A stretch of 64,000 bases of DNA from an uncultured Spirochaetia bacterium (GTDB lineage: Bacteria; Spirochaetota; Spirochaetia; JABEVK01): assembly GCA_937960645.1 (NCBI GenBank), contig CALGPJ010000012.1, positions 2,702 to 66,701 of the forward strand. The letters are read 5' to 3'. Under the pieces are notes generated by a model, which was given only the letters and a program-made list of their open reading frames with translations, was not told the origin of the DNA and ran no database searches. Positions 4,011 through 45,133 of this stretch are shown here, piece by piece. Made by a program: the position numbers and the translations under genes. Each line of letters begins with the position of its first letter. The first letter of the stretch is position 1.

Positions 4011-5690
4011 TCAGAGCTCCAACCTGCGGTGCCCCTGGTAGAGTTTGTCGCGCTGGGCCTTGACCTCGGGCGAACGCAGGTATGTCTCAAAATCGCAGCG
4101 GCGGTCGATGAATCCCCCCGGCGTGAGTTCGATGATACGGTTAGCAGTACTGGCCACCAGCTGATGGTCATGGCTGGTAAAGACGAGCACCTGATCGTAT
4201 TCCTCGAGGGCTGTGTTCAGACTGGTAATCGCTTCCAGATCGAGATGGTTGGTCGGCTCGTCCATTAAAAGCACGTTGGGGCCCTGCAGCATCAGCCGCG
4301 CCAGAAGACAACGCACCCGTTCACCGCCGGAGAGCACGTTCACGGGTTTTTGGGTCTCGTCGCCGCTGAATAGCATCCGTCCCAGAAAGCCTCGAATGAA
4401 GGTATCGTCGTCCTCCTTGCTGAAGGGCCTAAGCCAATCCACCAGGTTTTCGGTTCCTTGAAAGAGACGGGTGTTGTCCTTTGGGAAGTAGCCGATCTGA
4501 ATGGTTTGCCCCCATTCCAGGTTGCCGCTGTCCGGCGCGACCTCGCCGGCTAAAAGCTGCAGCAGCAGGGTCTTGAGACCAGCCTCGCCCAAAAGAGCGA
4601 TTTTGTCTCCCTGCTCCACCACCAGATCAAAGTCCTTGAGTGGGCTCACCCCTTCGACGGTTTTGGAAAGCCGATTAACCCGCAGCACACTCTTTCCACA
4701 GGGACGCTCCGGCTTGAACGCGATGTAGGGGTACTTGCGATTGCTGGGCCGTAGGCTCTCCAAATCCAGCTTTTCAAGCAGCTTCTGACGGCTGGTGGCC
4801 TGACGGCTTTTGGCAGCATTGTGGGCAAACCGCATGATAAAGGCCTTGAGCTCGGCCGCCTTTTCTTCGGCTCGGCGCTTTTCGTCCCGGCGCTGACGGG
4901 CTAAAATCTGACTGCTCTCGTACCAGAAATCATAATTGCCCACATAAAGTTGGATCGTGCCGTAGTCGATGTCGGCGATGTGGGTACACACCTGGTTCAG
5001 GAAGTGGCGGTCATGGCTGACCACAATCACAGTGTTTTTGAATTCGTAGAGAAAGTCTTCGAGCCAGGCGATGGACTCCATATCGAGGTGGTTGGTCGGC
5101 TCGTCCAAAAGGAGAATGTCCGGATTGCCGAAAAGGGATTGCGCCAGAAGGACCCTCACCTTTTCCCCACCTTCCAGTTCGCGCATCAGTTTCGTGTGAT
5201 AACTTTCCTCGATCCCCAGCCCATCCAGAAGAGTGGCGGCCTCGCTTTCGGCTTCCCATCCATTCAGCTCGGCAAACTCGCCCTCGAGTTCGCTGATGCG
5301 AAGACCTTCCTCATCCGTCAAAGACTCCTTGGCATAGAGGGCCTCTTTTTCCTGCATGATCTCGTAAAGCCTTCTGTGCCCCATGATGACGGTATTCAGG
5401 ACGGTGTGGTCGTCGAAGGCAAATTGGTTTTGTTGCAATACTGCCATCCGCAGACCCCTGGGGATCGAGATCGATCCACTGGAAGGTTCAATCTCACCGG
5501 ACAGGATTTTGAGAAAGGTGGACTTGCCGGCGCCGTTGGCCCCGATCAAACCGTAACAATTGCCGGGGTTGAATTGAATGTTGACGTCCTTGAACAGGAA
5601 GCGCTTCCCAAAAGCCAAAGAAAGATTGTTGACGGTAATCACGACATCATGCTGGTCATGCGTGGCACTCCTGTCAAGAGCGTCGATCAA
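4011..5690 (-). CDS. ABC-F family ATPase (two fused ABC cassettes, no TM domain)
   Basis: Cassette 1: GANGAGKSTFLKIL, LSGGEKVRVLLA, LLLDEPTNHLD, SHDRHFLN. A charged inter-cassette linker (RRDEKRRAEEKAAELKAF) follows. Cassette 2: LSGGERVRCLLA and LLMDEPTNHLD, with a degenerate P-loop LLGEAGLKT. Confidence 0.85.
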   Translation of the reverse strand: MIDALDRSATHDQHDVVITVNNLSLAFGKRFLFKDVNIQFNPGNCYGLIGANGAGKSTFLKILSGEIEPSSGSISIPRGLRMAVLQQNQFAFDDHTVLNTVIMGHRRLYEIMQEKEALYAKESLTDEEGLRISELEGEFAELNGWEAESEAATLLDGLGIEESYHTKLMRELEGGEKVRVLLAQSLFGNPDILLLDEPTNHLDMESIAWLEDFLYEFKNTVIVVSHDRHFLNQVCTHIADIDYGTIQLYVGNYDFWYESSQILARQRRDEKRRAEEKAAELKAFIMRFAHNAAKSRQATSRQKLLEKLDLESLRPSNRKYPYIAFKPERPCGKSVLRVNRLSKTVEGVSPLKDFDLVVEQGDKIALLGEAGLKTLLLQLLAGEVAPDSGNLEWGQTIQIGYFPKDNTRLFQGTENLVDWLRPFSKEDDDTFIRGFLGRMLFSGDETQKPVNVLSGGERVRCLLARLMLQGPNVLLMDEPTNHLDLEAITSLNTALEEYDQVLVFTSHDHQLVASTANRIIELTPGGFIDRRCDFETYLRSPEVKAQRDKLYQGHRRLEL

Positions 5691-6952
5691 TGATCTGATT
5701 TTTCATTACCCAATAACAACATCAGGATGGCACGTAGGGCAAACACGGCGAACAAAAAAGTCAGGGCCGCGGATGCCGCCAGAGGGCGTAATTGCCGCAA
5801 ACCGACATCGACAAGATGGTAAACTTCGGCGGGAAAAAGGGCCCACAAATCGGGATAGAGCCACCCTCGAATGAAATCCAGCAGAACAACGAAGAGTCCT
5901 GTTTCGATCAGGGACCTGCCTGCGGACCGCAGACATCGTCGGGTATATTCCCCGAAGCGCGCCGGTAGAACCAAAAAATGCATCACGTAGGAGCTCGGTA
6001 AACCGAGAGCGATGCCTGCCAGTAGGAGGCCTGGTTGGCTGGTTTCCTCGAAGCCATTTTCCAGAACGAAGACAGGAATGAGGGTAAGCGCGTAAACCAG
6101 GCCCAGGAAGGCATACCAGAGCAGAGCACCCGACCCACTTTCGGAAACAGCAACCATGAGCGGGCGCAGGAAGGTCGCCAGGGCCAGAATGGCTCCCAAA
6201 CCAAAAATGAGTGTAGTCGGATATCGGGCAAGGACCAGCAACTTGACGATGAGTTTCCTTACCGGATGATTCGGTTTGGCTTCGTTGAGGTACAACCAGA
6301 GGCTCAAACTTGCCGGCAAGGCCAGGACAAAACCCAGGAAAATGACCAATAACCAGGGTAATAGAAGAAGGATGCCAACGTTTTCGTTTTCCGAAAAGGA
6401 GGCACCTTCCCGGCTCCAGAAATGACTCAACCAAAATTGTGTTTCGGCACGCACCCGTCTCCCCTTGATTTCCTCGATCTGGCGGATCGCCGTGAGAGCC
6501 TCCTCGATCCGAGATTGCTGAAAGAGGGCCTGGAGGCCGGAGAACGAAGCAACAACCTGCGGCCGCAGCACGTAACGGTCCAGGAGATACACCAGGTCGG
6601 CCTGCGTCAGATTGTCCAGGAGCACCAACCGAACCGACTCCCACGGGAGCTCGGAAACCGTGCTCCCAAGGGTCCGTGCATGCAATTCCACCACCGCGGG
6701 AAACCTCCGTTCGGCAAAGGCACGCAAGGTCGAGGCCGGGACGTGCGCAAAAATCCATCGAACCTGTTGTTCCCGGGGATAATCCTGCAGCCCAGGAATT
6801 TCCTGCTGAAAACCCGAGGGAATGAAGCGATCGACCAGGATGGAAGCCGTCCAGGATTCGTTGAGCAGAACGAGCACGACCGCGATGGGAAGCAAGGCTG
6901 TGAAAATGCTCGAGGCGAGGCCGGTGGCGCGAAAAACGACGTCATTACTCAT
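5687..6952 (-). CDS. ABC-transporter-type permease with large extracytoplasmic loop
   Basis: Multi-pass membrane protein with an EAA-like loop (GIALGLPSSYVMHFLVLPARFG). Start set at ATG 6952 (Met27 of the ORF-track ORF), just after the upstream stop. Its stop overlaps the ABC-F ATG (ATGA). Confidence 0.6.
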   Translation of the reverse strand: MSNDVVFRATGLASSIFTALLPIAVVLVLLNESWTASILVDRFIPSGFQQEIPGLQDYPREQQVRWIFAHVPASTLRAFAERRFPAVVELHARTLGSTVSELPWESVRLVLLDNLTQADLVYLLDRYVLRPQVVASFSGLQALFQQSRIEEALTAIRQIEEIKGRRVRAETQFWLSHFWSREGASFSENENVGILLLLPWLLVIFLGFVLALPASLSLWLYLNEAKPNHPVRKLIVKLLVLARYPTTLIFGLGAILALATFLRPLMVAVSESGSGALLWYAFLGLVYALTLIPVFVLENGFEETSQPGLLLAGIALGLPSSYVMHFLVLPARFGEYTRRCLRSAGRSLIETGLFVVLLDFIRGWLYPDLWALFPAEVYHLVDVGLRQLRPLAASAALTFLFAVFALRAILMLLLGNEKSDH

Positions 6953-7823
6953 CGTTCGAATCCCTGCCAGTTTTCGATGCCGAAGAGGTTCTAACCCATC
7001 CCGAGGATTCAACCAGGCGGTCCGCGACAATTTTGCAAACCACGATGAGAAAAAACAAAACCAGGGCCGTGAGGGCCAAACTGGAAAAACGACCCGCGGC
7101 CGCTTCCGCAGGCGCCTGCCGAAGCAAAAGACCGGCGAGGGTTGTGGTTTGATCAGGGCCCACCAGAAGTGCCGGCAGCACTGCCTCCCCCAGGCCTCGG
7201 GCCCCCATCACCCAGCAAATACTCATCAGGGGCCGCGCGCTGAGGGGAAGGAGAAGATCCTTGATGAGTTGGCCTCGCGTGGCCCCCAGGTGCAGGGCCG
7301 TTTGACGGATATTGGCCGCGACATTTTGAAAAATTCGGTAAAATTCCCAACTCAGCAGGGGTAGAAAACAGAGCGAAAACGCCACGATAAGGTTGGCGCT
7401 GGGATCCAAACTTGCCCAAAATACCGCGACGACGAGGGTGGGAATGTAGTGAGCCGCTTTCAAAAAGGGCAGAATCCTTGTTCGAAAACGGGTCGAAGCG
7501 GCCTCGCTCAAATAAAGACCCGCCACTAAAGCGATAGGAAGGGCCAATACAAGTCCCGCCCCCACCGTCACCAGGGTGGGTCCGAGGAGACTCCCCAGAC
7601 GCTGCAGCGTCCCCAGAGCGTCGTGCCGCTGGGTGACGGCGAACAGAACAAGGAGTGCGGGAAAAAACAAGAGACTGACGGCCACACTAAAGGCCAAGGC
7701 ACGGCTTGACGCCAACAGCACACGAGCTGACAGGGGAATGTTCACTTTCTCGGAAGGGCCTCGGCGCTTCAAAACAGCCTCGATACTTTTGTAAATAATC
7801 GGAAATATCGTTGCAGTTGACAT
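6945..7823 (-). CDS. ABC transporter permease (binding-protein-dependent transport type)
   Basis: Six hydrophobic helices and an EAA loop TALHLGATRGQLIKDLLLPLSARP. Confidence 0.7.
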   Translation of the reverse strand: MSTATIFPIIYKSIEAVLKRRGPSEKVNIPLSARVLLASSRALAFSVAVSLLFFPALLVLFAVTQRHDALGTLQRLGSLLGPTLVTVGAGLVLALPIALVAGLYLSEAASTRFRTRILPFLKAAHYIPTLVVAVFWASLDPSANLIVAFSLCFLPLLSWEFYRIFQNVAANIRQTALHLGATRGQLIKDLLLPLSARPLMSICWVMGARGLGEAVLPALLVGPDQTTTLAGLLLRQAPAEAAAGRFSSLALTALVLFFLIVVCKIVADRLVESSGWVRTSSASKTGRDSNDE

Positions 7824-7907
7824 TCAATAAGTAGTGGTGAACAGGCACAAAAAACAGAGGTATCTCCAGCCATCACGTGAAAATTATATGTGGCCATGCG
7901 GCCATCA

Positions 7908-7937
7908 TCAAGAAAGCCGGACCCCGAAAGGTCCGGC
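7908..7937 (-). terminator. intrinsic terminator after the porin gene
   Basis: The minus strand reads GCCGGACC-tttcgg-GGTCCGGC followed by TTTCTT, about 25 nt after the stop at 7961. Confidence 0.6.
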
Positions 7938-7960
7938 CTGAAAAATTTTAGAGAAAACGA

Positions 7961-9319
7961 TTAGTAGTTGACAGTCATCCCGAAGGTGATCGCACCGTCG
8001 ATGTCCATTTCCGCGCCGATCTTGGAAGTGTTGAAGTCCGCCACGTAGCCCAACCGGATCTCGTTTCGACCTTCGATCAGCCGAATGGAGGGGTAAAGCC
8101 GGAATTTGTCCGCTGGCGCCGTGGCACCCGAAGCATCCCTGGCGGTCTCGTAGGTGAAGTCAAGAGCAGGTTTGAAATCGTAACCAAACAGAAGACCCTT
8201 GAAGAGGTAGCTCACGTAACCATCGATGTACAAGGCGTTGTCGTCATATTTTTCGTAGGGCTTGGTGGGCGAGTTGGGGATTTCATAGCCCGTGTTGAAG
8301 AATTTGGAGAGCACGTCGATTCCGAAGGCCAGCCCTTCCCAGGTGAAGCCCAGGGTAGCGTTGAGGTCCTGGGCGCGCACCGAGAAATTATCCCCTCGGA
8401 ACGCAACGCCGTACTGCAGCCCCATCTTCAGGCCTTTCACGAGTCCAAAAAAGTCCTTGGTGATATTGACACCCACATGGGTGACGTTGAAACCAGTCTT
8501 TTCGTCGGAACCGAAATAATTTCCAAAGCCACCAGAGAATGAAGCCGAAGTAAGGAAGGAGTTTTTGATATCGTCTCCGTAGAGCCAGCCGCCCACAAAC
8601 TTGAGGCCGAGGTCCTTCACGTCTACGAAGAAATTGACGTCAACGCGGTCACCGCTGGCCAACCAGGCGCCATCGACACCCGTCGATGTATCCAGTTTCC
8701 AGGGCAGGAACACTCCCAGGCCGACATCGACCGGGGCCTTGTCGAGTACCTGAAGGTTGGACAGAACCTGGATGGGCTTGAGCTGGAACTCGAAGCCCTC
8801 AGAGGCACGGCCGCCGCTGTAGTTACCGAAACCAATGTTGTCCCCAGCCCCATAAAAGAAGACGTTGTAATCGCCGGTGATGCGCGTCCGCCCGCCGGTC
8901 ACCCGGAAAGCTTTTTTCCATAATTGAGCGTAGGCACTCGCATACTCGAGATCGATCAGGCCACCGATCAGGTAGGGATTAACAAGCGTCTGGGCCAATC
9001 GGTAATGGAGACGGGCTCTCAGACCGAAGTCGCCACTGGTGTAGTCGAAGTTGAACCGGAAACGGGTGTTTTCGGGCGAAGCGTCGTAGGCACCGGTCTG
9101 GAATGCATCCAGGTTGAACAGGCCGGAGTAGGCCAGGTAGCCGCTGATCCTGATGCGGTTTTCCAGGGCCTTGACCCGATCTCCCAATTCCTTTTCCAAC
9201 TTCTCCACACGCTCGCCCAGCTGGGGTTGCGAAGGTGCGGGAGTGGCTTCCTCCGATTGGGCGTAGATGCCCAAACCCAACAATGTTGCCATGAGGGCAA
9301 CGAGATATCTGTTTTTCAT
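7961..9319 (-). CDS. outer-membrane porin-like beta-barrel with N-terminal coiled coil
   Basis: Start at ATG 9319, with AAGGAGG upstream. Signal peptide MKNRYLVALMATLLGLGIYAQ, then coiled segment LGERVEKLEKELGDRVKALENR. Alternating beta pattern, ending in an aromatic residue (TFGMTVNY). Confidence 0.6.
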   Translation of the reverse strand: MKNRYLVALMATLLGLGIYAQSEEATPAPSQPQLGERVEKLEKELGDRVKALENRIRISGYLAYSGLFNLDAFQTGAYDASPENTRFRFNFDYTSGDFGLRARLHYRLAQTLVNPYLIGGLIDLEYASAYAQLWKKAFRVTGGRTRITGDYNVFFYGAGDNIGFGNYSGGRASEGFEFQLKPIQVLSNLQVLDKAPVDVGLGVFLPWKLDTSTGVDGAWLASGDRVDVNFFVDVKDLGLKFVGGWLYGDDIKNSFLTSASFSGGFGNYFGSDEKTGFNVTHVGVNITKDFFGLVKGLKMGLQYGVAFRGDNFSVRAQDLNATLGFTWEGLAFGIDVLSKFFNTGYEIPNSPTKPYEKYDDNALYIDGYVSYLFKGLLFGYDFKPALDFTYETARDASGATAPADKFRLYPSIRLIEGRNEIRLGYVADFNTSKIGAEMDIDGAITFGMTVNY

Positions 9320-9474: not shown

Positions 9475-10971
9475 TCATAATTTTCTAAAAAAGGTCAAGA
9501 GCTCACAAAGAACCTCTTCCAGCTCACCCCTTTGTGAGCAAATCTCTCCAAACTGCTCGTACAATTCGATCTGGTGCAATCGGTCCCGGCGTCCGCTCCG
9601 ATGCAGAGACTGCCAGGCAATCCATCCGAAATGGCCCAATCCCTGCCGGGCCAGTTCCATCGCGCGTCGGAAAAGTCGCGCACTGACTGCCCCCTGGCTC
9701 ACCACGTCCTGGTTGCCGCTTTCGGTGGGTCGAGAGAGGTTCACCACGCTCGTGGCGAGTTGCTGGACCTCGGCGGCCAGGGCGCTCAGGGCAATGCCCA
9801 CCGCCTTGAGTCCAAAACGAGGTTGGGCGGGATCCCAGTCGGCCAAATTGGCCCCCAGCCCTCGGTTCTGGGCCGGATCCAGCAGCAGCTGAGCCTGGCG
9901 GTCGATCAGGTTCATACTGCTCGCCAGCACCTGGCGCAAGAGATCGCCGGCCAGGCTGACGTGGAAGCCCGAGAAATTGCCGTTGTGATAGACGCGGCCT
10001 GAGTCGGGGTCGATGAGGGGGTTGTCGTCCACTCCCGCCAGCTCGTTTTCCAACCAGCGCGCCGCCACCTCCAGGGACTCCAGAGCCATCCCGTAAACCT
10101 GGGGCGCACACCGAAAACTGTAGCGAGGTTGGATATTGAATGGCCCGGTTCGGGTCCCCACCGGCGTCCCTTCGAGTTCGGCAACACCGAGGAGGAACTG
10201 GGCGCTTTGTCGAATGCCCGGATGTCCCTTGAGACGATTGGGAACATCCAGGAAAAACTCGTCTTCGAGGTCCAGGGCCAGGGCGCCCCAGGCGGTAAAG
10301 GTTTGAGCCAAATCGATCCAGCGCCGCATCTGGACGCTGCTGAGGATGGCCAGGGCTGTCATGAAGGCCGTGCCGTTCATCAAGGCGAGGGCCTCGCGCC
10401 CCTCCAGTTCCAAGGGAGGAATGCCAAGTTCCCTCAGGACATCCCTGGCGGGCATGATCTGTCCCCGATACCAGGCCCGCCGCTGACCCATTACCAGGGC
10501 GGCAAGGTAGCTGAGCGGGGTCAGATCGCCGCTGGCCCCAACGCTGCCCTGTTCCGGGATCACGGGAGCGATTCCGGCCTCGTAGAGGCGAAGGAGGCCC
10601 TCGATGAGTTCGGGCCTGACCCCGGAGTAACCTCGGGATAAGGTGCAAAGTCGTGCTAGGAGAACGGCACGGCCCTCGATTTCGGACAACTCGGGCCCGG
10701 TCCCACAACCGTGGTAGGACACGAGCTCGATCTGCAGACGTGCCATCCCCTCCGGTCCCACCACCAGCCGCCCCTCCTCGCCGAAACCGGTGTTGACGCC
10801 GTAGATTTTTCGCCCCTGTTGGAGAAACTGCATCAATAATCGATGGGAATGGAGGCTTCGTTCCCGGGCCTGGGGATCCCACGACAACTTTTGGGGATTC
10901 TTGGCCCAATCAACAAATTGGTCAAGGTCTATCCTGGCGGTACCCAGCTGGTTCGACAAATTTGACTCCAC
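9475..10971 (-). CDS. tal: MIO-dependent aromatic amino acid ammonia-lyase, tyrosine ammonia-lyase by context
   Basis: YGVNTGFG, the MIO tripeptide in GSVGASGDLTPLSY, NGT, QPRYSFRCAPQV and DDNP. GTG start. Divergent from pyp across 47 bp. Confidence 0.85.
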   Translation of the reverse strand: MESNLSNQLGTARIDLDQFVDWAKNPQKLSWDPQARERSLHSHRLLMQFLQQGRKIYGVNTGFGEEGRLVVGPEGMARLQIELVSYHGCGTGPELSEIEGRAVLLARLCTLSRGYSGVRPELIEGLLRLYEAGIAPVIPEQGSVGASGDLTPLSYLAALVMGQRRAWYRGQIMPARDVLRELGIPPLELEGREALALMNGTAFMTALAILSSVQMRRWIDLAQTFTAWGALALDLEDEFFLDVPNRLKGHPGIRQSAQFLLGVAELEGTPVGTRTGPFNIQPRYSFRCAPQVYGMALESLEVAARWLENELAGVDDNPLIDPDSGRVYHNGNFSGFHVSLAGDLLRQVLASSMNLIDRQAQLLLDPAQNRGLGANLADWDPAQPRFGLKAVGIALSALAAEVQQLATSVVNLSRPTESGNQDVVSQGAVSARLFRRAMELARQGLGHFGWIAWQSLHRSGRRDRLHQIELYEQFGEICSQRGELEEVLCELLTFFRKL

Positions 10972-11018
10972 GTTAAAAAATTTATTATTTTCATGGTATC
11001 ACAGACTTGGAGGTTTGT

Positions 11019-11396
11019 ATGGAGCAGATTCAATTCGGCGCCAATGACATGGCCAACGCTATTTCGAAACTCGGAGACAGGGAAATCGAAAACCTGGCAT
11101 TCGGCGCGATCAAGCTCGACAAGAGCGGCAAGATCCTGTCCTATAACAAGGCCGAGGGGGACATCACCGGCCGCAATCCCAACGAGGTTATCGGGAAAAA
11201 CTTCTTCACCGAGGTTGCCCCCTGCACCAATCAGCCCGAATTTTACGGCAAATTCAAAAAGGGTGTGGAAGAGGGAAACCTCAACACCTTGTTCGAGTAC
11301 ACCTTCGACTACAAAATGACGCCCACCAAGGTGAAGGTTCACATGATGAAGTCCTTGTTGGACGACGGTTACTACATCTTCGTCAAGCGTGTGTGA
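11019..11396 (+). CDS. pyp: photoactive yellow protein (125 aa)
   Basis: Aligns without gaps to the H. halophila PYP as I recall it. Tyr42, Glu46, Thr50, Arg52 and Cys69 (VAPCT) are retained, as is [23 protein letters not shown] lies 5 nt before ATG 11019; the TTG at 11007 in the ORF track is unlikely to be the start. Confidence 0.95.
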
Positions 11397-12556
11397 TCGA
11401 TCTCAGTGAGGAAGCTCAGCGGCGGTACTGTAGGGACTTCATCCGCTTCCATCTGGCCCGGCTTCGTCGGTCGTCCGAGGTTCTAAACCTCGGGGAGGAA
11501 TATGATTCCGTCCTACTCCGAGAGGGCCCGTTCCTTGTCGATTCCCTGGAAATGGTCCAACTGGCGGGCCTGTTTGCAGATGTTCTCGATCTGCGAACCT
11601 ACGGTCTGGAAGACCTGCTCTTGGCCAAACCCAGCGTTCAACAATGGCAACACATCCTGAACCGGGCCATCGAGGCGGGCCTGGACACCTGGGGCTTTCA
11701 TACCTCCGGGAGTCAGGGCGAACCCCGTCTGGTCCGCCATTCCTGGGAGCACCTCGTGAGCGAAGTGGCTCTGATCGGAAAGCATCTGAACAACTGGACC
11801 ATTGAGAGGGTGATTGGTCTGGTCCCGTCCCACCACATCTACGGCTTTCTCTGGTCGATCCTGTTTCCACAGATGTTCGGCCTGCCTGTCATCACGCCGG
11901 GACCTGTGTTCACCGCCTTCCAGGACAGGGATCTGGTGATCGCCACGCCCTTTTTGGTCGAGCAATGGCGTGTCCGGGAAATCCTTCCTCCCCCTTCTGC
12001 CCTGATCCTGGTATCCACCGCCCCCTTTGAACCAAAAACTGCCGGGTGGTTGGATGCCAACAGCCGCCCCTGGGTGGAGATTTACGGCAGCACCGAGACC
12101 GGGGGCATCGGCTTCCGATCCTCTACCGACCGGGGCTTTACCCTCCTCGATCACTGGGAATGGATCGAGGAGAGCGGAAACCTCGTTCTTCAGAAGGACG
12201 GGCGCACTTATGCCTTCCCCGACCACGTGCGCCTCGAAGGAAGGACCGTGGTACCGATGGGCCGTAAAGACGGGGCGGTGCAGGTCGGCGGGGTCAACGT
12301 CTATCCGCAAAAAGTCCAGGCCTTTCTCAGCAATCTGCCCGGTGTCCAACGGGTGTGGGTCCGCCCGCACACGGAAAATGGCTCCGTGCGCCTCAAAGCC
12401 TGGGTGATCCCCGACGGAAGCCTCGAGCCGAAACAGCTGGAAATCAGCCTCAGGGAGCGCTGTGCCCAGGGATTGACCTCTGCGGAGCGCCCTGTCCATT
12501 TCACGATCGACGAGAACCCGCCCCTTTCTCCCTTCGGAAAACTGTTGGACTGGTAG
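11393..12556 (+). CDS. pcl: 4-coumarate--CoA ligase-like adenylate-forming enzyme (PYP chromophore activation)
   Basis: Short acyl-CoA ligase with [21 protein letters not shown] and C-terminal PFGK. Its GTG start overlaps the pyp stop (GTGA). Confidence 0.8.
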
Positions 12557-12621: not shown

Positions 12622-13311
12622 ATGCGTTATCTTGCCCTTCTCTCTCTTCTTGCAATCAGCCAAGTATATGGGAATGTCATCGACGACATCATGAATCGTC
12701 GTCAGCTCGAACTCGCCGATGCCTACTGGCTGGCGGGAGAGCGCTACATCGAACTGAATAAGACCGAAATCGGCCGGGCGATGCAGGCCCGTGCCCGCCA
12801 ACTGGTCCCGGGTTACCAACCGCCGTCGGAGAGACAGATGGATGGGGTACCGAGCCTGACGCCGGCCCCAGTCGAGGTCGCTCTGCCGCAGATCAGTCAG
12901 GAAGAGATCGCCCGAAGAGCCGCTGAAGGTCGGAGGATCGTGAGAATCCAGTTCAACCGGCTGGTGCGCGGTTTTCTCATGGAAGAGATTTCCACGATTT
13001 CCTCTGGTTTGGCGGAACGCATCGAGGTTCCCGAGGTTGGCAATTTGAGTCGTAACGAGGCAACGCGTCGGCTACAGGAACTGTTCCAGGACGCTGAAGT
13101 CGATGGCCTTGGCATCGAGGACTTGTATAACCCGGACACGATCCAGGTAGAACAGGTCGAGGGCACGACAGACGATTACGTTTTGACCGTCAACCTATCT
13201 TCGAACGCCCCGGATTATCTTCAGCGACGCCCCTGGTGGGCCCCCTCGCTCAGCCTGTACTTTGTTCGATCGGGTAACAACTGGGTTTTGCGCGCAGTAT
13301 CGAAAAACTGA
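12622..13311 (+). CDS. secreted hypothetical protein
   Basis: AAGGAGG before the ATG. Signal peptide MRYLALLSLLAISQVYG. No family recognised. Confidence 0.6.
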   Translation: MRYLALLSLLAISQVYGNVIDDIMNRRQLELADAYWLAGERYIELNKTEIGRAMQARARQLVPGYQPPSERQMDGVPSLTPAPVEVALPQISQEEIARRAAEGRRIVRIQFNRLVRGFLMEEISTISSGLAERIEVPEVGNLSRNEATRRLQELFQDAEVDGLGIEDLYNPDTIQVEQVEGTTDDYVLTVNLSSNAPDYLQRRPWWAPSLSLYFVRSGNNWVLRAVSKN

Positions 13312-13313
13312 TC

Positions 13314-14045
13314 TTATCGCCTTTGCATCAGGTAGCGGACCTCCCCCTCCTTGGTGAGGGGGATGATCCAATCTCGGAAATAATACACGATAGGCTCGGC
13401 GGCAATGATGATGCGGTTGTTGGGATCGGATGCCTTCTGAAGACTTCTGATCTTTCGCTCCACCCGCCGCAGCACTTCCTGTTCAACTTCTTTGCGGGTC
13501 AGGCGTTCCATCAAGCTCTTCTCGTCCTGGCGATCGATCAATTCCTGATAGACGGCGGGCTCGAGACGGTACTTGCTCTCCGCGACATAACAGGCAGCGT
13601 AATGAATGCGGCGGGCTATGGCCTGGAGACAGATCACATCGTGCTCGACACTGCTGCCGAGATGCCCGTCGCTGTCGGGTTTGCAGATTTGCGGTAAAAG
13701 CTCGAGATAACTGATGAGAATGCGTCCCGATAAATTGATGGTTTCCAATTCGCGAATATGGAGCTCGGGATCGAGTGTCGTCACCAGGCGCCGGGGCCGG
13801 GGCAGACCGGTGTAAAAGGGCCGTTCTTCCGGAACCAGGTAGCGCCCGAAGAGCGCATCCACCGTTTCCTGATGGAGCAGGCGAAGTTCCAGAAGGGTTG
13901 CCGACTCAGGGGGATCGAATCCGCTGATACCGGGTGTGTAGGCCGCCTCGTTGTACGCAAATTGACATCGGTCCAGGAGTTTCATCAATATCGCTTCTTC
14001 CAGGCCCGCAAGACGGGCAACGACCTGATCGAGGTTCAAGGGCAT
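13314..14045 (-). CDS. chorismate mutase, eukaryotic (yeast Aro7-like) long AroQ type
   Basis: Collinear with yeast Aro7 as recalled. LNLDQVVARLAGLEEAILMKLLDRCQF matches LNLQNIRDELVRMEDSIIFKFIERSHF. CLQAIARRIHY..VAESKY matches CLQSLSRRIHFGKFVAEAKF. IIPLTKEGEVRYLMQR matches VIPITKEVEVEYLLRR. Confidence 0.8.
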   Translation of the reverse strand: MPLNLDQVVARLAGLEEAILMKLLDRCQFAYNEAAYTPGISGFDPPESATLLELRLLHQETVDALFGRYLVPEERPFYTGLPRPRRLVTTLDPELHIRELETINLSGRILISYLELLPQICKPDSDGHLGSSVEHDVICLQAIARRIHYAACYVAESKYRLEPAVYQELIDRQDEKSLMERLTRKEVEQEVLRRVERKIRSLQKASDPNNRIIIAAEPIVYYFRDWIIPLTKEGEVRYLMQRR

Positions 14046-33869: not shown

Positions 33870-34691
33870 ATGAACAGCGACTACACTCAGCAAATCAAAA
33901 GAGCCGCCGAATGGTTGAGTCAGAAAACCGAGCACCGGCCCAAACTGGGGATCGTTCTGGGATCGGGCCTTTCGGAGGTTGCCGATGGCTTTCGTGGAGT
34001 AGACATTCCTTACCGTGACATACCCGGTTTTCCCGTCTCCACGGTGAGCGGGCACAAGGGGATGATGCGCATCACCCCCGAGGTGATGATCATGATCGGC
34101 CGGGTCCATTACTACGAAGGTTGGGCGTTGACCGATGTGGTCCTGCCGCTCTTCGTCATGCACGCCTTCGGGGTCAAAAAGCTGATCATCACCAATGCCG
34201 CGGGCGCGGTGACCCCGCAGCTCAAGCCAGCCAGCCTGGTCCTCATTCGGGATCATATCAATCTGATGGGTACCAACCCCTTCATCGGTGCCAACGACCC
34301 AGAGCTGGGACCGCGGTTTTTCGACATGACCCGAGTCTGGGACCACGAAATGCGGATTCAGGCCCAGGAGGTCGCCCGCGCCCAGTTGTCGAAGCGCTAC
34401 CCCCTGCCGGAGGGAGTTTACGCCGCTCTGCCGGGCCCCAACTACGAGACTCCCGCCGAAATCCGAATGCTCCAGGTCCTGGGGGCCGATCTGGTAGGGA
34501 TGAGCACCGTCCCCGAGGCCCTCGCGGCAGCCTACCTGAACATGAAAGCCCTGGGAATCAGCTGTGTCACCAATTTAGGGGCCGGTTTATCGCAGGGGCC
34601 GCTCAATCACGAGGAAGTCGTCGAAGTCGGAAAAATCGTGGAACGGGATATGCAGACCCTGATCCAGGGACTTGTTGCCCGTCTGCAATGA
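33870..34691 (+). CDS. punA: purine nucleoside phosphorylase (trimeric PNP/PunA type)
   Basis: GIVLGSGL, GHKGMM, HYYEGW, ITNAAG, GMSTVPE. Start at ATG 33870 (Met30 of the ORF-track ORF). Confidence 0.85.
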   Translation: MNSDYTQQIKRAAEWLSQKTEHRPKLGIVLGSGLSEVADGFRGVDIPYRDIPGFPVSTVSGHKGMMRITPEVMIMIGRVHYYEGWALTDVVLPLFVMHAFGVKKLIITNAAGAVTPQLKPASLVLIRDHINLMGTNPFIGANDPELGPRFFDMTRVWDHEMRIQAQEVARAQLSKRYPLPEGVYAALPGPNYETPAEIRMLQVLGADLVGMSTVPEALAAAYLNMKALGISCVTNLGAGLSQGPLNHEEVVEVGKIVERDMQTLIQGLVARLQ

Positions 34692-37102
34692 CCATCACCG
34701 AGGTCTTTCCCCCCAAGGTACTCGCCTCCATGAAGGAGGACCTCCAGGAAGCCGGCGGGCACGAGGTCCTGTGGGTTGCCCAGGTCGATGCGAACCTCAA
34801 CGTCACTTCGGTGGAAAAGGTCGCCGAGGGGACGATCGATTCGGTGGCTGTCCTGCGTCCCTGGGCCGAATCCGGGGATGCCATTATCCACAACCACCCC
34901 TCCGGCAACACCCATCCCAGCAAGGCCGACCTCGACGTGGCGCATCAACTGGGGGAATGGGGGGTGGGATTTATTATTGTAGATAACAAACTTACCTCCT
35001 GCCGCATCGTGGCCAGGCCGTTGGTGCTGCGGCCCATCGACGAGCTGGAAGGGGAGAAGCTCGCCGAAGTCCTCAAACCTGGGGGAAAGCTCAGCCAGGA
35101 GCCGGGCTATGAATACCGCAGCGCTCAGGTGGCGCTTCTTGAGGCCATCGTCCACGCCTTCAACCGGGACAGGGTCCTGGTGGCCGAAGCAGGAACGGGG
35201 ATCGGCAAAAGTTACGCCTACCTCCTTCCCGCCCTGAACTGGGCACAGAAGAACAAGGAACGGGTCGTGATTTCCACCGGCACCATCAACCTCCAGCGGC
35301 AGGTGCTGGAGAAAGACATTCCCCGGGTTCAAAAGCTGTTGGGGACTCGGCTTCGCGCGGAACTGGTCAAGGGCCGCAGCAACTACCTCTGCCCGGCACG
35401 CCTGGCTGAAGCCCTGAAAGAAGCCGATCCCCAACAAAAAGAGGCCTTGAAGCCCTTTGCCGATTGGGCCGAAACCAGCCCCACCGGGGACCGCGAAGAT
35501 TTCAATGGTAGCATTTCCCCGGATGTCTGGTCCGAAATATGCTCCGAAAAAGAAATTTGCGCGGGCTTTCGCTGCGGCCTGCGGGAAGATTGCTTCGTGA
35601 CCCAGGCCCGCAAGCGCGCTGCCGCAGCCCAAATCCTGGTGGTCAATCACCACCTGCTCCTGGCCGATTTGAGCCTGAGGTTGGACGGCATGGGCTGGCA
35701 AGGAAACGCCGTCCTGCCCCCGTTTAGAAGATTGGTGATCGACGAGGCCCACAAAATCGAGGAAAGCGCCACAAGCTATTTTTCCCAGTTCTACAGCCGC
35801 CGCCGGGTGTTGCGCCTGATCCGACGCTTGTTCCGCCGAAAGAAACGAAAGCAGCTGGGCGTCCTCGTACAGTTGAGTGAAGAAATCACTCTGCCGGTAA
35901 AACTCACCGACATCGAAAAAAAGCTGGAAGTCATCGATGCCCATTCCAGCGCGGTCCAAACAGGGGCTCAGGAGATCCTGGGCGAAGAAAACTCCTTGTG
36001 GATGCGTGAAATCGACCAGAGAATTCGCGACCTTTTACTGCGGCCTTTGCAGGAACTGCAACTCAGCTTTCTGGAGCTGACGAATCTTTGCCAAAAAATC
36101 AACCGAGGGCTATCGGAAAAGACCGCACAATCCCCGGTCGGCTACGAATTTCGGCACCTTATCGAGCGCCTCCAATCCCTGGCCGCCTTGATGGGGCAAA
36201 TCCTCCAATTCGAAGAACAGAAAAATCTGATTTATTGGCTGGAAAGGTCCCAGGATGACGTCAACATCAACATCAGTCCCATCGAGCTGGGTCCCTACCT
36301 TCATGAAGCCCTCTTCGAGCCGATCAAGACCGTCGTCGCAGTCAGTGCCACCCTGGCAGTACGCCAGGGATTTGACTATTTTCTCAAGAATAGTGGGGCC
36401 GACCGTCTCCCGTCCGAAAGACGGATCACCTCCCTCTTCGAAAGCCCCTTCGACTACGCCAGCCGCGTGCTTTTGGGTGTTCCCACCGACATCGCCCCTC
36501 CAGAACAAAAAGTTGCCTGGTTCCAAAAGTCTCTCGAGTTCACCCGGCAGGCACTCAAGATCAGCGGCGGCGGCGCCCTGCTCCTCTTTACCAGTTACGA
36601 ACAGCTCAGGGAAGCACGCGACGCTTTGCAGCCTTTTTGTGCACACCAGGGCATCAATCTTTACCATCAAGGTCAAACCAGCAATTCCCAGCTGTTGAGA
36701 CAGTTCAACCAGGATGTGGACTCTATCCTTCTCGCTACCTACAGTTTCTGGGAGGGGGTCGATAGTCCCGGGGATACCCTGAGGCTCTTGATCATCTTCA
36801 AGCTCCCTTTCAGCGTGCCAACGGACCCAGTCCGGCTTGCCCGAAGCGAATACCTGGAAAAGATGGGCAGGAACTCGTTCCGGGAGCTAAGTTTGCCTGA
36901 AGCGGTCATCCGCTTGAAGCAGGGTTTTGGACGCCTCATGCGCCGCAGCGACGACGGGGGCGCCGTACTCATCCTGGACAGCCGTCTGGTCAACAAGTTT
37001 TACGGGAGGGAGTTCCTGGATTCCTTACCGCCGGCCAGGCAGGCCATACTTCCCTCGGTTGAATTGACCGAAGCACTGGAACGGCATTTCAGAAACCTAT
37101 AA
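34688..37102 (+). CDS. RadC-type JAB/MPN domain fused to DinG/XPD-family Fe-S DNA helicase (804 aa)
   Basis: Start at ATG 34688, overlapping the punA stop (ATGA). JAMM motif IIHNHPSGNTHPSKAD (34889-34930). Walker A AEAGTGIGKSYA. Cys cluster NYLCP ... CSEKEICAGFRCGLREDC. DEAH box VIDEAHKIEE. C-terminal helicase motifs include WEGVD and GFGRLMRR. Confidence 0.85.
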   Translation: MTITEVFPPKVLASMKEDLQEAGGHEVLWVAQVDANLNVTSVEKVAEGTIDSVAVLRPWAESGDAIIHNHPSGNTHPSKADLDVAHQLGEWGVGFIIVDNKLTSCRIVARPLVLRPIDELEGEKLAEVLKPGGKLSQEPGYEYRSAQVALLEAIVHAFNRDRVLVAEAGTGIGKSYAYLLPALNWAQKNKERVVISTGTINLQRQVLEKDIPRVQKLLGTRLRAELVKGRSNYLCPARLAEALKEADPQQKEALKPFADWAETSPTGDREDFNGSISPDVWSEICSEKEICAGFRCGLREDCFVTQARKRAAAAQILVVNHHLLLADLSLRLDGMGWQGNAVLPPFRRLVIDEAHKIEESATSYFSQFYSRRRVLRLIRRLFRRKKRKQLGVLVQLSEEITLPVKLTDIEKKLEVIDAHSSAVQTGAQEILGEENSLWMREIDQRIRDLLLRPLQELQLSFLELTNLCQKINRGLSEKTAQSPVGYEFRHLIERLQSLAALMGQILQFEEQKNLIYWLERSQDDVNINISPIELGPYLHEALFEPIKTVVAVSATLAVRQGFDYFLKNSGADRLPSERRITSLFESPFDYASRVLLGVPTDIAPPEQKVAWFQKSLEFTRQALKISGGGALLLFTSYEQLREARDALQPFCAHQGINLYHQGQTSNSQLLRQFNQDVDSILLATYSFWEGVDSPGDTLRLLIIFKLPFSVPTDPVRLARSEYLEKMGRNSFRELSLPEAVIRLKQGFGRLMRRSDDGGAVLILDSRLVNKFYGREFLDSLPPARQAILPSVELTEALERHFRNL

Positions 37103-41977: not shown

Positions 41978-42856
41978 ATGAAAAACTTTTTCGCCTGGAG
42001 CTTCTTTCTGTTGATTGCGGGGAACTGGGCCTATGGGGAGGTGATCTACCTGCGCAGCGGCGAGATCGTGATTGGTAACATCGTCGGGGCCGGGCTGGGC
42101 ACCATCTCGGTTCGCTCTTTCGGTAAGGAACGCAACATTCCCTCCAAAGACATCCTGAAAACCATCGCCTCCTTGCGGGAAATTGGTGAAGACACCGTCC
42201 TGGTGGTTCTCAAGGATGGAACCAACATCGTCGGGAAACCGGTGGATGTGGACGACGAGCTGGGATTGTTCGTGGACATTGGGTTCGGCAACCTCGCTCT
42301 TCCCACCCGGGCCATCTCTTCGATATACGACCCGGAAAGACGGGCCGTGGCCCAGGGGACTTCCGTCAATTTCTCGGGTAACTTCAAATACATCCTCCCC
42401 CTGAGTAGCAGTTTTTCGCCCGGTATTGGGGGTTCCGTCAGCACCGAGGTTCGGCTGGGGCAGATCCGAGAATTATTCCTCAATCCGGTGGTGTCTTTTT
42501 ATCACATGGACTACAAGGTCAACGATAAAATCGATTTTTACAACGTTGCCGTCGATTTGAATATTCTTTACAAACTTCTGGTTTTTGGGGAAATTCTTCC
42601 CGCGGTAGAGTTCCTGGTGCCCTATTTCGGATTGGGCGCTGGCGCCACCTTGGTCAATCTTTTCGATGCCCGCGACGAGGCGCCCCTTCCCCAATATGGT
42701 CTGTTGACAGGTTCCTTCAATGCCCAGGCCGGTTTCGAGTGGCGATTCCCGCTCAACATCGCCTTGAAAACGGGGGCAATTTTCGAAGGCATCCTCCAAT
42801 CGGGCGGGCTGTTCTGGAACGTCTATTTGGTGGCCGGGTTGGGCTATGGTTTTTAG
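41978..42856 (+). CDS. outer-membrane beta-barrel protein with N-terminal soluble beta domains
   Basis: AAGGAGG before the ATG. Signal peptide MKNFFAWSFFLLIAGNWAYG. The C-terminal half has an alternating beta pattern and ends in VAGLGYGF. Confidence 0.6.
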   Translation: MKNFFAWSFFLLIAGNWAYGEVIYLRSGEIVIGNIVGAGLGTISVRSFGKERNIPSKDILKTIASLREIGEDTVLVVLKDGTNIVGKPVDVDDELGLFVDIGFGNLALPTRAISSIYDPERRAVAQGTSVNFSGNFKYILPLSSSFSPGIGGSVSTEVRLGQIRELFLNPVVSFYHMDYKVNDKIDFYNVAVDLNILYKLLVFGEILPAVEFLVPYFGLGAGATLVNLFDARDEAPLPQYGLLTGSFNAQAGFEWRFPLNIALKTGAIFEGILQSGGLFWNVYLVAGLGYGF

Positions 42857-43991
42857 AAATCGATGGGCTGCCCTTGGCCTCATCGGCCTGGTCCTGGTTG
42901 CGTGTCAAAACAATCTCCTCTTCCAGCCCGTTGCGCCAACAGATGTTGAAGAAACCCTGAAGGCGGTGAAGCTTCGGGGAATATGGGTCATCGGTGGTCA
43001 GAATACCCCGTACAACCTGGGGTACCCCACCGCGGCCGGCGTCATCGCTCAGGTGGACCTCTACGATCCCGAGACGAACACCTGGTACCCCGACATCACC
43101 CGCCTGCCACTGCCGGTCACGTTTGCCGGTGCCGCCAGCTACGGGGGTAAGATCTACGTTTCCGGGGGCTGGGATTCCCGCGGCGTCGTTCGCAATGAGC
43201 TACAAATCTTTGACGTGATTCAAAATCGCTGGAGCTTCGGTGCGATCATGCCGGAGCCCAGGGCCTACCACGACCTCATCCTTCTGGACGAATATTTTTA
43301 CGCCTCCGCCGGCGTCAACACGAACCACGATGCCACATTCAATCCTCGATATCAGTACTTCCGCTACGATCCTTCCCGAAACAGCTGGGCACCCCGGCTG
43401 GCTTTTGGGAATATCAACAGCACCATAACCCTTGCAGGGGGCATCATCCGCGCCATGGGCGGACGTAGTACCAGCACTGCCATCCAGAACTATCACGATG
43501 GTTACATCGCCACGCCAACTTCATCCACGGACGCCACGACAACCGGTACGACAGAAATTTCCATTGCCCGGATGTTCGGAGGGGCCGTATCGCTCCTCGG
43601 TTCCGACCTGGCTGGGTACATCCTCTATTTCGGAGGCATCAATGCCAACCTGGGAGGAACCTGGCGAGCCTTCGTGTTTCACGACCTGACATCCAACAAC
43701 AGCATTCTGACGAACACCATCTTTTACCTGAAGGCTCCTTACGAGGCCCCCTCCAACTGGACCGCTGCCCCGGCCAGCCTCAACCAGGCCCTGGCCTTTC
43801 ACCGTGCCATCACCTACAAGAGCGGCGTGTACGTTATGGGCGGTTCGAAAAACCTTCCCGGCCCCATCGCCACCGAGGAAAATTGGTTTTTCAACCTCAG
43901 CAACTTCCCTGCGGCCCTTCCCCCCCCTGTGGCTAAATCTCCCATGCCGGTGGCCCGATACGGCCACCAACTCGTGAGGGTAGTCGAATGA
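42846..43991 (+). CDS. Kelch-type beta-propeller lipoprotein, paralog 1
   Basis: Lipobox LVLVAC followed by QNNLLF. Kelch-like blades: GKIYVSGGWDS, LQIFDVIQNRWS, YDPSRNSW. C-terminal PMPVARYGH. Confidence 0.75.
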   Translation: MVFRNRWAALGLIGLVLVACQNNLLFQPVAPTDVEETLKAVKLRGIWVIGGQNTPYNLGYPTAAGVIAQVDLYDPETNTWYPDITRLPLPVTFAGAASYGGKIYVSGGWDSRGVVRNELQIFDVIQNRWSFGAIMPEPRAYHDLILLDEYFYASAGVNTNHDATFNPRYQYFRYDPSRNSWAPRLAFGNINSTITLAGGIIRAMGGRSTSTAIQNYHDGYIATPTSSTDATTTGTTEISIARMFGGAVSLLGSDLAGYILYFGGINANLGGTWRAFVFHDLTSNNSILTNTIFYLKAPYEAPSNWTAAPASLNQALAFHRAITYKSGVYVMGGSKNLPGPIATEENWFFNLSNFPAALPPPVAKSPMPVARYGHQLVRVVE

Positions 43992-45133
43992 AAAGGCACC
44001 TGTCCATTTTTCTGGTTCTCCTGGCCTCCTGTCAGGGCAATCTGCTCTTCGAACCGTACCCAAAGGACGCCCCCGGGGACCCGCGCCCCCTCGCGGCGCT
44101 GAAGCGGGGTTTTTGGGTAGTGGGCGGCCAAAGCTCCCACTACACGGGCACCTCCTTTCCCTTCGTTGCGAACCTGCCCGCCCAGATTGACGTGTTCGAC
44201 CCCGAAACAGAGACCTGGTACCCCAACGTCACCCAGCTTCCCACACCCGTCAGCTTTGCGGGGGTGGCCGGATACAAGGGGAAGCTCTATGTGGTCGGCG
44301 GCTGGGACAGCCAGGGGGCCGTTCAGCAAAAACTCCAAATTTATGATTTGATGAGCGACACCTGGACGCAAGGGGCCGTGTTGCCGGCTTTGAGGGCTGG
44401 CCTGGAATTGGTGGGCATCGAGGGCGATTATCTTTATGCCACCAACGGGTATAATACCAACATCGACGGGGCCTACGCCAATCAAAATCTCTGGTATATG
44501 TATCAAATCAATAGCAACACCTGGCTGCCGAGGATCAACCACGGGGCGGTGGACCAGGCCGTTCTTTCGTTTCGCGGCATCATTCACACCGTAGGAGGCA
44601 GAACGGCCGTAGCGACCCTCGTCAATGCCCACGACGGCTACCTGACCTGGCCGACCTCTTCCACCGACACAGCCACCACCACAACGGCAGAAATCCCCGC
44701 TCCTTCCGTTCGCGCCGGGTCCAGCCTCACCATTCTTTCTTACACCAATGGCATGCCCCTGCTGATTCTGTCCGGGGGCATGTCTGCGAATCCGACGGGA
44801 ACGCCCCTGGCCTACATCTTCCGCAATATAACAGGGGGAACGCTGACCAACCAGCTCCATTTTTTGCCCCCGCCCTACGAGGCGGGAAGCTGGACCCTCC
44901 TAACCCCTACCTTGCCCGCTACCCTGATGTACCACCAAAGCCTGGCTTACAAAACCCGGCTGTATGTGTTTGGGGGGGCATCGGCAGTGTTATCGCCCTC
45001 GGGTCTCGACACCGTCTACCGTTTCGATTTGAGCAACCTGACCAGTGTGCCCGCCCCTGCGACCCTTGTCCCCATGCCGGTGGGCCGTTTTGGACACCGG
45101 GTGGTTCGAATTTCGGAATTTCTGGAGGATTGA
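43988..45133 (+). CDS. Kelch-type beta-propeller lipoprotein, paralog 2
   Basis: Lipobox LLASC followed by QGNLLF. Motifs: AQIDVFDPETETWYP, GKLYVVGGWDS, LQIYDLMSDTW. C-terminal PMPVGRFGH. The start overlaps the paralog 1 stop (ATGA). Confidence 0.75.
   Translation: MKRHLSIFLVLLASCQGNLLFEPYPKDAPGDPRPLAALKRGFWVVGGQSSHYTGTSFPFVANLPAQIDVFDPETETWYPNVTQLPTPVSFAGVAGYKGKLYVVGGWDSQGAVQQKLQIYDLMSDTWTQGAVLPALRAGLELVGIEGDYLYATNGYNTNIDGAYANQNLWYMYQINSNTWLPRINHGAVDQAVLSFRGIIHTVGGRTAVATLVNAHDGYLTWPTSSTDTATTTTAEIPAPSVRAGSSLTILSYTNGMPLLILSGGMSANPTGTPLAYIFRNITGGTLTNQLHFLPPPYEAGSWTLLTPTLPATLMYHQSLAYKTRLYVFGGASAVLSPSGLDTVYRFDLSNLTSVPAPATLVPMPVGRFGHRVVRISEFLED

Follow-up and report, generated by a model that had tools for sequence, protein, structure and literature searches.

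A 64,000-nucleotide stretch of DNA from an uncultured Spirochaetia bacterium (positions 2,702 to 66,701 of contig CALGPJ010000012.1, assembly GCA_937960645.1; here called the window) carries, within its positions 9475-12556, a three-gene set that by family and residue evidence encodes the apoprotein of a blue-light sensor, photoactive yellow protein (PYP), together with both of the enzymes that supply its chromophore. The three open reading frames (ORFs) were confirmed in the ORF list at the coordinates of Table 1, and the identity of the module, first proposed in an annotation made from the DNA alone (the first-pass annotation), holds. Very probably the locus represents a functional and self-sufficient module of the type known from Halorhodospira halophila, carried by an uncultured Spirochaetales-like bacterium. 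Chance resemblance is ruled out by the family scores of the apoprotein (TIGR02373, 186.7 bits) and of the lyase (PF00221, E 2e-127).

The PYP apoprotein

In a comparison with solved structures, residues 1-125 of the window PYP align with residues 1-125 of H. halophila PYP without a gap (E 4e-56), and 83 of the 125 positions are identical by count (66.4%), in agreement with, and not below, the two thirds that the first-pass annotation had estimated by eye. The five residues singled out in that annotation, Tyr42, Glu46, Thr50, Arg52 and the chromophore-bearing Cys69, are all identical in the ungapped alignment, and Phe62, Val66, Thr70, Phe96, Tyr98 and Met100 are likewise kept. The match to the PYP family TIGR02373 covers residues 2-125 (profile positions 1-124 of 124) and scores above the curated equivalog cutoff of 143.05 bits. 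The PAS profile PF00989 also matches the protein, which consists of a single domain with no output domain; judged from these sequence features, it is a PYP of the clade A type, with a PAS fold, an N-terminal cap and a length of about 125 amino acids (aa).

Among the genes of the module, pyp is the slowest-evolving, its product being 90% and 84% identical to those of two comparison loci, L030 and L031 (L-numbers denote comparison loci throughout), which points to purifying selection. Trp119, the sole tryptophan of H. halophila PYP, corresponds to tyrosine in the window PYP (codon 11373-11375) and in the PYPs of Spirochaeta africana and S. lutea.

The chromophore-supply enzymes

The gene divergent from pyp encodes an aromatic amino-acid lyase dependent on the cofactor 4-methylideneimidazole-5-one (MIO). 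In a structure-sequence comparison, solved lyases for histidine, tyrosine and phenylalanine, and aminomutases too, all lie at about the same distance from the protein, which is claimed by none of the curated lyase models considered below; the assignment of its substrate therefore relies on the active site (residue numbers are those of the 498-aa ORF of the window). The Ala-Ser-Gly triad that forms the MIO group is present within the motif GASGD, and Tyr57, Asn199, Tyr284 and Arg287 are conserved. The selectivity switch, at the positions of His89-Leu90 in R. sphaeroides tyrosine ammonia-lyase (TAL), reads Tyr86-His87, and the carboxylate site, at positions 435/436 of the same enzyme, reads Asn420-Gln421 within NQDVVS and not the Gln-Glu of histidine ammonia-lyase. 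The signature described for TALs by Brack et al. (PMC9321829) consists of H/L, Y/H, F/H or S/H at 89/90 combined with N/Q at 435/436, histidine ammonia-lyases having Q/E or T/E at the latter site; in the same study, a Spirochaetes branch sits among the Y/H-F/H branches, together with a reported TAL of Idiomarina loihiensis. On the basis of its active site, the window lyase is a predicted TAL. This specificity is strengthened by the observation that the lyase gene remains beside pyp in L001, L002, L004, L030, L031 and S. africana though the flanking genes differ, and in the same six loci the divergent arrangement of the lyase gene and pyp-pcl recurs.

Lyases linked to PYP fall into two classes, one with a His-Leu switch (the Marinobacter, Rhodovibrionaceae and alphaproteobacterial loci sampled) and the other with [Tyr/Phe]-His-Gly (spirochaetes, Campylobacterota and Idiomarina), and these classes separate in 200 of 200 bootstraps of a tree built without Idiomarina. 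Within the second class, the switch reads F-H-G-C-G in Idiomarina tyrosinivorans and Y-H in S. africana. The existence of two well-separated classes of PYP-linked lyase is a useful comparative by-product of the analysis.

The ligase gene, pcl, encodes a product of 387 aa and begins with a GTG that overlaps the TGA of pyp by 4 nt (GTGA), as the first-pass annotation had read it. The gene calls of L030 show an overlap of 4 nt as well, the longest ORFs of L001, L002, L004 and L009 also give one, and the corresponding overlap in Idiomarina (L191) is 1 nt. A Shine-Dalgarno sequence was looked for before the GTG of pcl and none was found, which would fit translational coupling of pyp and pcl. The product aligns end to end with TIGR02372, residues 7-384 matching positions 6-385 of the 386 in the profile (E 5e-67, 226.2 bits), and this is by far its best family, the runner-up reaching E 9e-13. 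The core motifs of ANL enzymes, PFGK included, are found in it, and of the 29 loci that a PYP query retrieved, 27 have a ligase gene directly after pyp. We predict from these features that the pcl product works like p-coumarate-CoA ligase (pCL), as a divergent spirochaetal branch and not a proven equivalog.

Proposed function and organization of the module

If these assignments are correct, the MIO cofactor of the lyase would deaminate L-tyrosine to trans-p-coumaric acid, which the ligase would activate with ATP and CoA, and the p-coumaroyl group would then become attached to Cys69 of apo-PYP through a thioester bond. Tyr42, Glu46 and Thr50 would hold the phenolate of the attached chromophore, with Arg52 shielding it. 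Absorption of blue light (near 446 nm for the prototype from H. halophila) would isomerize the chromophore to give a partly unfolded signalling state, which would act on a separately encoded partner. The arrangement of the genes suggests that pyp and pcl share one transcript and are translated in a coupled manner through the GTGA overlap, and that transcription of the lyase gene runs the opposite way out of the spacer, which measures about 59 bp.

Table 1. Coordinates of the module in the window, and of the EAL proteins beside other spirochaete PYP modules in their respective comparison loci
Feature	Coordinates	Strand	Basis or remark
MIO-dependent aromatic amino-acid lyase, predicted TAL	9475..10971	-	PF00221, active-site residues
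Short divergent control region (putative)	10960..11018	.	59 bp, or 47 bp with lyase start GTG 10971
pyp, encoding a 125-aa single-domain PYP	11019..11396	+	Ungapped H. halophila alignment, TIGR02373
Cys69 codon TGC, predicted chromophore attachment site	11223..11225	+	Alignment to PYP
GTGA, overlap of pyp stop and ligase start	11393..11396	+	GTG 11393-11395, TGA 11394-11396
pcl, short adenylate-forming ligase, 387 aa, predicted p-coumarate-CoA ligase loading PYP	11393..12556	+	TIGR02372
EAL protein, L001	1017-2114
EAL protein, L005	73-819
EAL protein, L011	6852-7955
EAL protein, L013	6870-7964
EAL protein, L014	6618-7964
EAL protein, L018	9604-10671

The extent of the spacer depends on where the lyase begins. 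The longest ORF starts at GTG 10971 (498 aa), 47 bp from the ATG of pyp, and for this ORF the spacing given in the first-pass annotation stands; a more likely start, however, is TTG 10959, from which the product would have 494 aa and the spacer 59 bp. TTG 10959 is favoured because it is preceded by GGAG-TCAAAT, a context resembling a ribosome-binding site that compares with those of the ATG starts in L030 (GAGG-TCAAAT) and L001 (GGAG-TCAATC), and because the product would then begin with M-S-N-Q, like that of S. africana. On the other side of the spacer, a GGAGG ribosome-binding site lies 7 nt before the pyp ATG, and a sigma-70-like match for pyp, TTGACT-18-TATTTT, occupies 10962-10991 of the + strand. 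Both TTGAC and GGAG can be aligned with their counterparts in L030, L031 and L001; the -35 element overlies, at the same time, the ribosome-binding region of the lyase on the opposite strand, TTGAC being the reverse complement of its SD-spacer, so that the conservation is assignable to neither role.

Lineage of the host

The window encodes a phenylalanyl-tRNA synthetase (PheRS) with an alpha subunit of 515 aa and a beta subunit of 565 aa, sizes that we take to be those of the archaeal/eukaryal form carried by spirochaetes. Among species representatives, the best match to its PheS is 71% identical and comes from a metagenome-assembled genome (MAG) of a sulfidic cave, followed by Spirochaetales MAGs at 62-67%. 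The form of the enzyme and these matches together indicate that the window derives from an uncultured Spirochaetales-like organism, and the spirochaete lineage and archaeal-type PheRS of the first-pass annotation are borne out. The sulfidic-cave MAG (DYOB01 contigs, including L032 and L194), whose PheS and chorismate mutase (CM) are 71% and 68% identical to those of the window, was deposited as Borreliella garinii and is evidently mislabelled.

Alternative explanations

Several points weigh against a functional and self-sufficient module. The score of the ligase falls short of the curated equivalog cutoff of TIGR02372, which is 334.7 bits. The lyase lies under the cutoffs of every curated NCBIfam lyase model, the TAL models BagA/FevW (274 bits against a cutoff of 1000) and FlxA (269 against 700) included. 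Two predicted TALs proved to be phenylalanine ammonia-lyases (PALs) (PMC9321829), lyase specificity is described as not reliably readable from sequence (PMC3992019, PMC12826048), and a gene for a signalling partner of PYP was not found in the window. The shortfall of the ligase is shared with other PYP-linked ligases, those of Marinobacter (292 bits), an Ectothiorhodospiraceae genome (281), L001 (217) and L030 (205) all failing; among the PYP-linked ligases scanned, only that of Halorhodospira (426 bits) clears the cutoff, and TIGR02372 is the only family to attain E 1e-20 in any of these. Because only Halorhodospira passes, the cutoff marks out a narrow core of proteobacterial ligases and is no definition of the function; most PYP-linked ligases from genomes other than Halorhodospira escape the strict curated model. 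As for the lyase, BagA/FevW and FlxA describe other pathway-specific TAL subfamilies, and PYP-linked TALs have no curated model. Since the sequence rules are fallible, its tyrosine specificity is nevertheless something that we infer. The enzyme could instead act on histidine or phenylalanine as an ammonia-lyase, or on tyrosine as an aminomutase, the chromophore acid being taken up from the environment or made elsewhere, an explanation to which the best NCBIfam scores, those of histidine ammonia-lyase models (310 and 292 bits, both under cutoff), a top PDB match annotated as histidine ammonia-lyase, and the occurrence of TAL in only 5% of predicted pyp operons (PMC12826048) lend some weight. 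We consider it improbable, as the carboxylate site with its NQDVVS motif is of the TAL/PAL type, family scans of the neighbouring genes revealed no hut genes nearby, the gene keeps its place beside pyp across the comparison loci, and Y/H is a listed TAL signature, the sole aminomutase in the tree of PMC9321829 lying on an S/H branch. Less likely still is that the PYP homologue has lost its light sensing, its PAS domain being either degenerate or turned into a sensor of redox state or of a ligand, a role proposed for some PYP relatives. Certain PYP clades do lack pocket residues, examples being Phe42 in Leptospira and Y42C in the methylobacterial Ppr (PMC9664959), whereas in the window PYP every pocket residue is intact, the score exceeds the equivalog cutoff, dedicated chromophore enzymes are kept alongside, and pyp is the slowest-evolving gene of the module, a sign of purifying selection.

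A different question is whether a gammaproteobacterium donated the module in a recent horizontal transfer; the first-pass annotation had proposed horizontal acquisition from the similarity of its PYP to that of H. halophila. The 66% identity to that protein is indeed as high as the identity to some spirochaete PYPs (62-63%), and the distribution of PYP across phyla is patchy, the literature proposing an origin in the Myxococcota, or in a common ancestor of Myxococcota and Proteobacteria, with transfer to other phyla including the Spirochaetota (Xing et al., PMC9664959). In the point tree all spirochaete PYPs cluster, with a support of 24 of 200 bootstraps (Kimura distances), a value that neither proves nor excludes their monophyly, and the pCL tree divides the spirochaetes into two groups. 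The nearest species representative (DYOB01) shares the order FolP...RlmL-CM with the window and has unrelated genes past CM, and a search with a PYP query found no PYP in it; synteny in L194 stops exactly after CM, and the contig ends 1.2 kb further on, so that insertion and rearrangement are indistinguishable. Against recent transfer, all named PYP matches of at least 76% identity are spirochaetal. The nearest PYPs are 90, 90 and 85% identical to that of the window, followed by Spirochaetales MAGs at 79-76% and S. africana at 73%; with spirochaetal proteins closest, likeness to a gammaproteobacterial PYP is no evidence of acquisition by this genome. L030 and L031 keep the gene order of the window across 20 kb at the least, and the flanking genes, with identities of 52-92% in L030 and 43-73% in L031, span the values of the module genes (TAL 70 and 55%, PYP 90 and 84%, pCL 56 and 44%, respectively). 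The lyases of spirochaetes form a clade in 200 of 200 bootstraps, and in three MAGs with both genes, identity to the window PYP (62-63%) tracks that of PheS (64-65%). The comparison of composition with the flanks suggested in the first-pass annotation gives an unremarkable result, the GC content at third codon positions being slightly raised in the module (0.72-0.78 versus 0.61-0.70) with no sharp compositional step. Recent gammaproteobacterial transfer thus has little likelihood: the synteny, the divergence of the module within the flanking range, its composition and the tracking of PheS by PYP establish that the module has been inherited vertically within the clade of the window and that its acquisition is not recent, whereas its deeper history is patchy.

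Neighbourhood and signalling output

The first-pass annotation described a stand-alone PYP with no transducer gene beside it, and family scans of the window proteins agree, finding no kinase, chemoreceptor or GGDEF/EAL gene adjoining the module. The neighbours are an ABC transporter set, an unassigned 462-aa protein, a 229-aa protein, a chorismate mutase and the methyltransferase RlmL, together with a beta-propeller protein, a TPR protein, FolP, CdaA and YbbR. The nearest signalling genes are those for CheW and a cyclic nucleotide (cNMP)-binding protein 7-9 kb upstream, and for an HATPase_c protein and an HD_5 protein 17 kb and 34 kb downstream, respectively. The missing output, which that annotation counted among the interesting points of the locus, is a question for the whole family, as the partner of a single-domain PYP has not been identified even for H. 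halophila (PMC9664959).

Relatives of the window provide a lead on what such a partner might be. Of the 10 spirochaete PYP loci that lie outside the clade of the window, 6 encode, directly beside the module, a protein of about 365 aa that ends in an EAL (cyclic di-GMP phosphodiesterase) domain (Table 1). It is a stand-alone protein with an N-terminal domain containing a CxxC motif; the six are full-length homologues of each other, and their alignment shows conservation of the signature motifs usual for EAL domains. A weaker EAL relative adjoins a Campylobacterota module (L015), and GGDEF/EAL genes have been reported in 29 pyp operons (PMC12826048). Approached from the EAL side, a PYP lies nearby in only 5 of the 80 best loci of this broad family, and the association is therefore confined to certain lineages. 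No homologue of the EAL protein at E < 0.1 is encoded in the window, and an EAL partner within the window was rejected on this ground.

By analogy with these relatives, our best guess is that the output of the module would be cyclic di-GMP turnover or chemotaxis, the former being the better lead and the latter an alternative. A more specific and rather doubtful suggestion, again by analogy, is that the window's clade kept the complete module unlinked from its signalling partner, and that the CxxC-EAL protein is the direct light-regulated target of single-domain PYP in Spirochaetales, an unlinked orthologue serving the organism of the window. Were this so, the CxxC-EAL family would be a concrete candidate partner for H. 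halophila-type PYPs; in any case, its recurrence beside spirochaete PYP modules is a lead on the PYP partner.

Other genes near PYP modules deserve mention. In L008, a single-domain response regulator (2424-2804) is encoded directly upstream of pyp and a DUF456 protein (4590-5087) downstream of pcl, and a DUF456 protein is found downstream of pcl in L009 as well (5407-5904); DUF456 occurs in a PYP neighbourhood in the table of Xing et al. (PMC9664959). In the window, 65 bp separate pcl from the start of a gene for a 229-aa protein (hyp229; 12622-13311, + strand), and no terminator-like site was found between the two; the N-terminus of the protein, MRYLALLSLLAISQVYG, resembles a signal peptide. 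Family profile scans gave no match for hyp229, and its position is conserved only in L030 (81%) and L031 (52%); with no family match and no homologue beside PYP outside the window's clade, it was rejected as a PYP partner. The next gene, two downstream of pcl (13314-14045, - strand), encodes a chorismate mutase of 243 aa that is of the AroQ type known from eukaryotes (plant/yeast); it matches TIGR01802 over its full length (164.6 bits, cutoff 170.9), has no Pfam match, and aligns end to end with solved plant and yeast structures (E 3e-34 to 3e-27). This gene lies beside the module only in the window's clade and was rejected as a part of it; in MAG 30, clean1873 and clean382, related Spirochaetales MAGs, it stands on contigs other than those with PYP, and it thus looks like the normal chorismate mutase of the lineage.

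Further from the module, the CheW gene (173 aa) is followed on the - strand by one for a 377-aa protein with the C-terminal cNMP-binding domain (469-2126), and the pair is also found in L030. Two tandem 381-aa Kelch-repeat beta-propeller proteins are encoded at 42846-45133 (+ strand), and a 993-aa protein at 34121-37102 (+ strand) combines RadC-like JAB, DEAD and Helicase_C_2 domains, a combination that struck us as unusual.

Comparison with known systems

The H. halophila locus, whose pyp, pcl and tal genes have been shown by experiment to have these activities (PMC12826048), encodes the same three functions, and in both organisms pcl lies directly downstream of pyp. The two PYPs have the same length and an identical chromophore pocket. 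The systems differ in that pyp, pcl and tal of H. halophila follow one another in a single operon (PMC12826048), whereas in the window the lyase gene is divergent and upstream; the window lyase carries the Y/H switch, and its ligase is far more divergent than that of the prototype, as the TIGR02372 scores attest.

In Idiomarina, the lyase is of the same class as in the window, with an [F/Y]-H-G-C-G switch and an N/Q carboxylate site, the pyp and pcl genes overlap, and the PYP is about 68% identical. The genes of I. tyrosinivorans are arranged as pyp-pcl-tal on one strand, in contrast to the divergent lyase of the window. The TAL of I. loihiensis has been characterized, and PYP in Idiomarina has been linked to a GGDEF protein and the control of biofilms, whereas no GGDEF/EAL gene adjoins the module of the window.

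Within the Spirochaetota, PYP is documented in 29 genomes (Xing et al., PMC9664959), and the phylum accounts for 5.9% of 984 known PYP homologues (Dohmen et al., PMC12826048), so the lineage context, which the first-pass annotation had presented as interesting, is not new. The homologues of Leptospira belong to the same phylum and are single-domain proteins like that of the window, but they form a separate clade B with Phe42, score under the TIGR02373 cutoff, and are always found beside a chemoreceptor (PMC9664959); the window PYP, by contrast, carries Tyr42, is of the clade A type and lacks an adjoining chemoreceptor. S. africana and Salinispira pacifica (Spirochaetales_C), whose PYPs fall in clade A with that of H. 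halophila (PMC9664959), come closer. In S. africana (complete genome CP003282, L192), a lyase with the Y/H switch is divergent across 63 bp from pyp, and pcl follows 3 nt after the pyp stop, the architecture of the window. The deposited call for this lyase (6405-8399, 664 aa) spans the whole of pyp on the opposite strand; judged from its sequence, the real start is probably the ATG at locus position 7937, which would give about 510 aa. For S. pacifica, the neighbourhood is listed as lyase, PYP and acyl-CoA synthetase (PMC9664959 Data Set S3). Both are different species and lineages from that of the window, with different flanking genes. As the layout is present in the cultured spirochaetes S. 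africana and S. pacifica, the architecture of the window was already on record, and the locus, which matters little alone, adds one uncultured Spirochaetales lineage to a family of about 1000 catalogued members.

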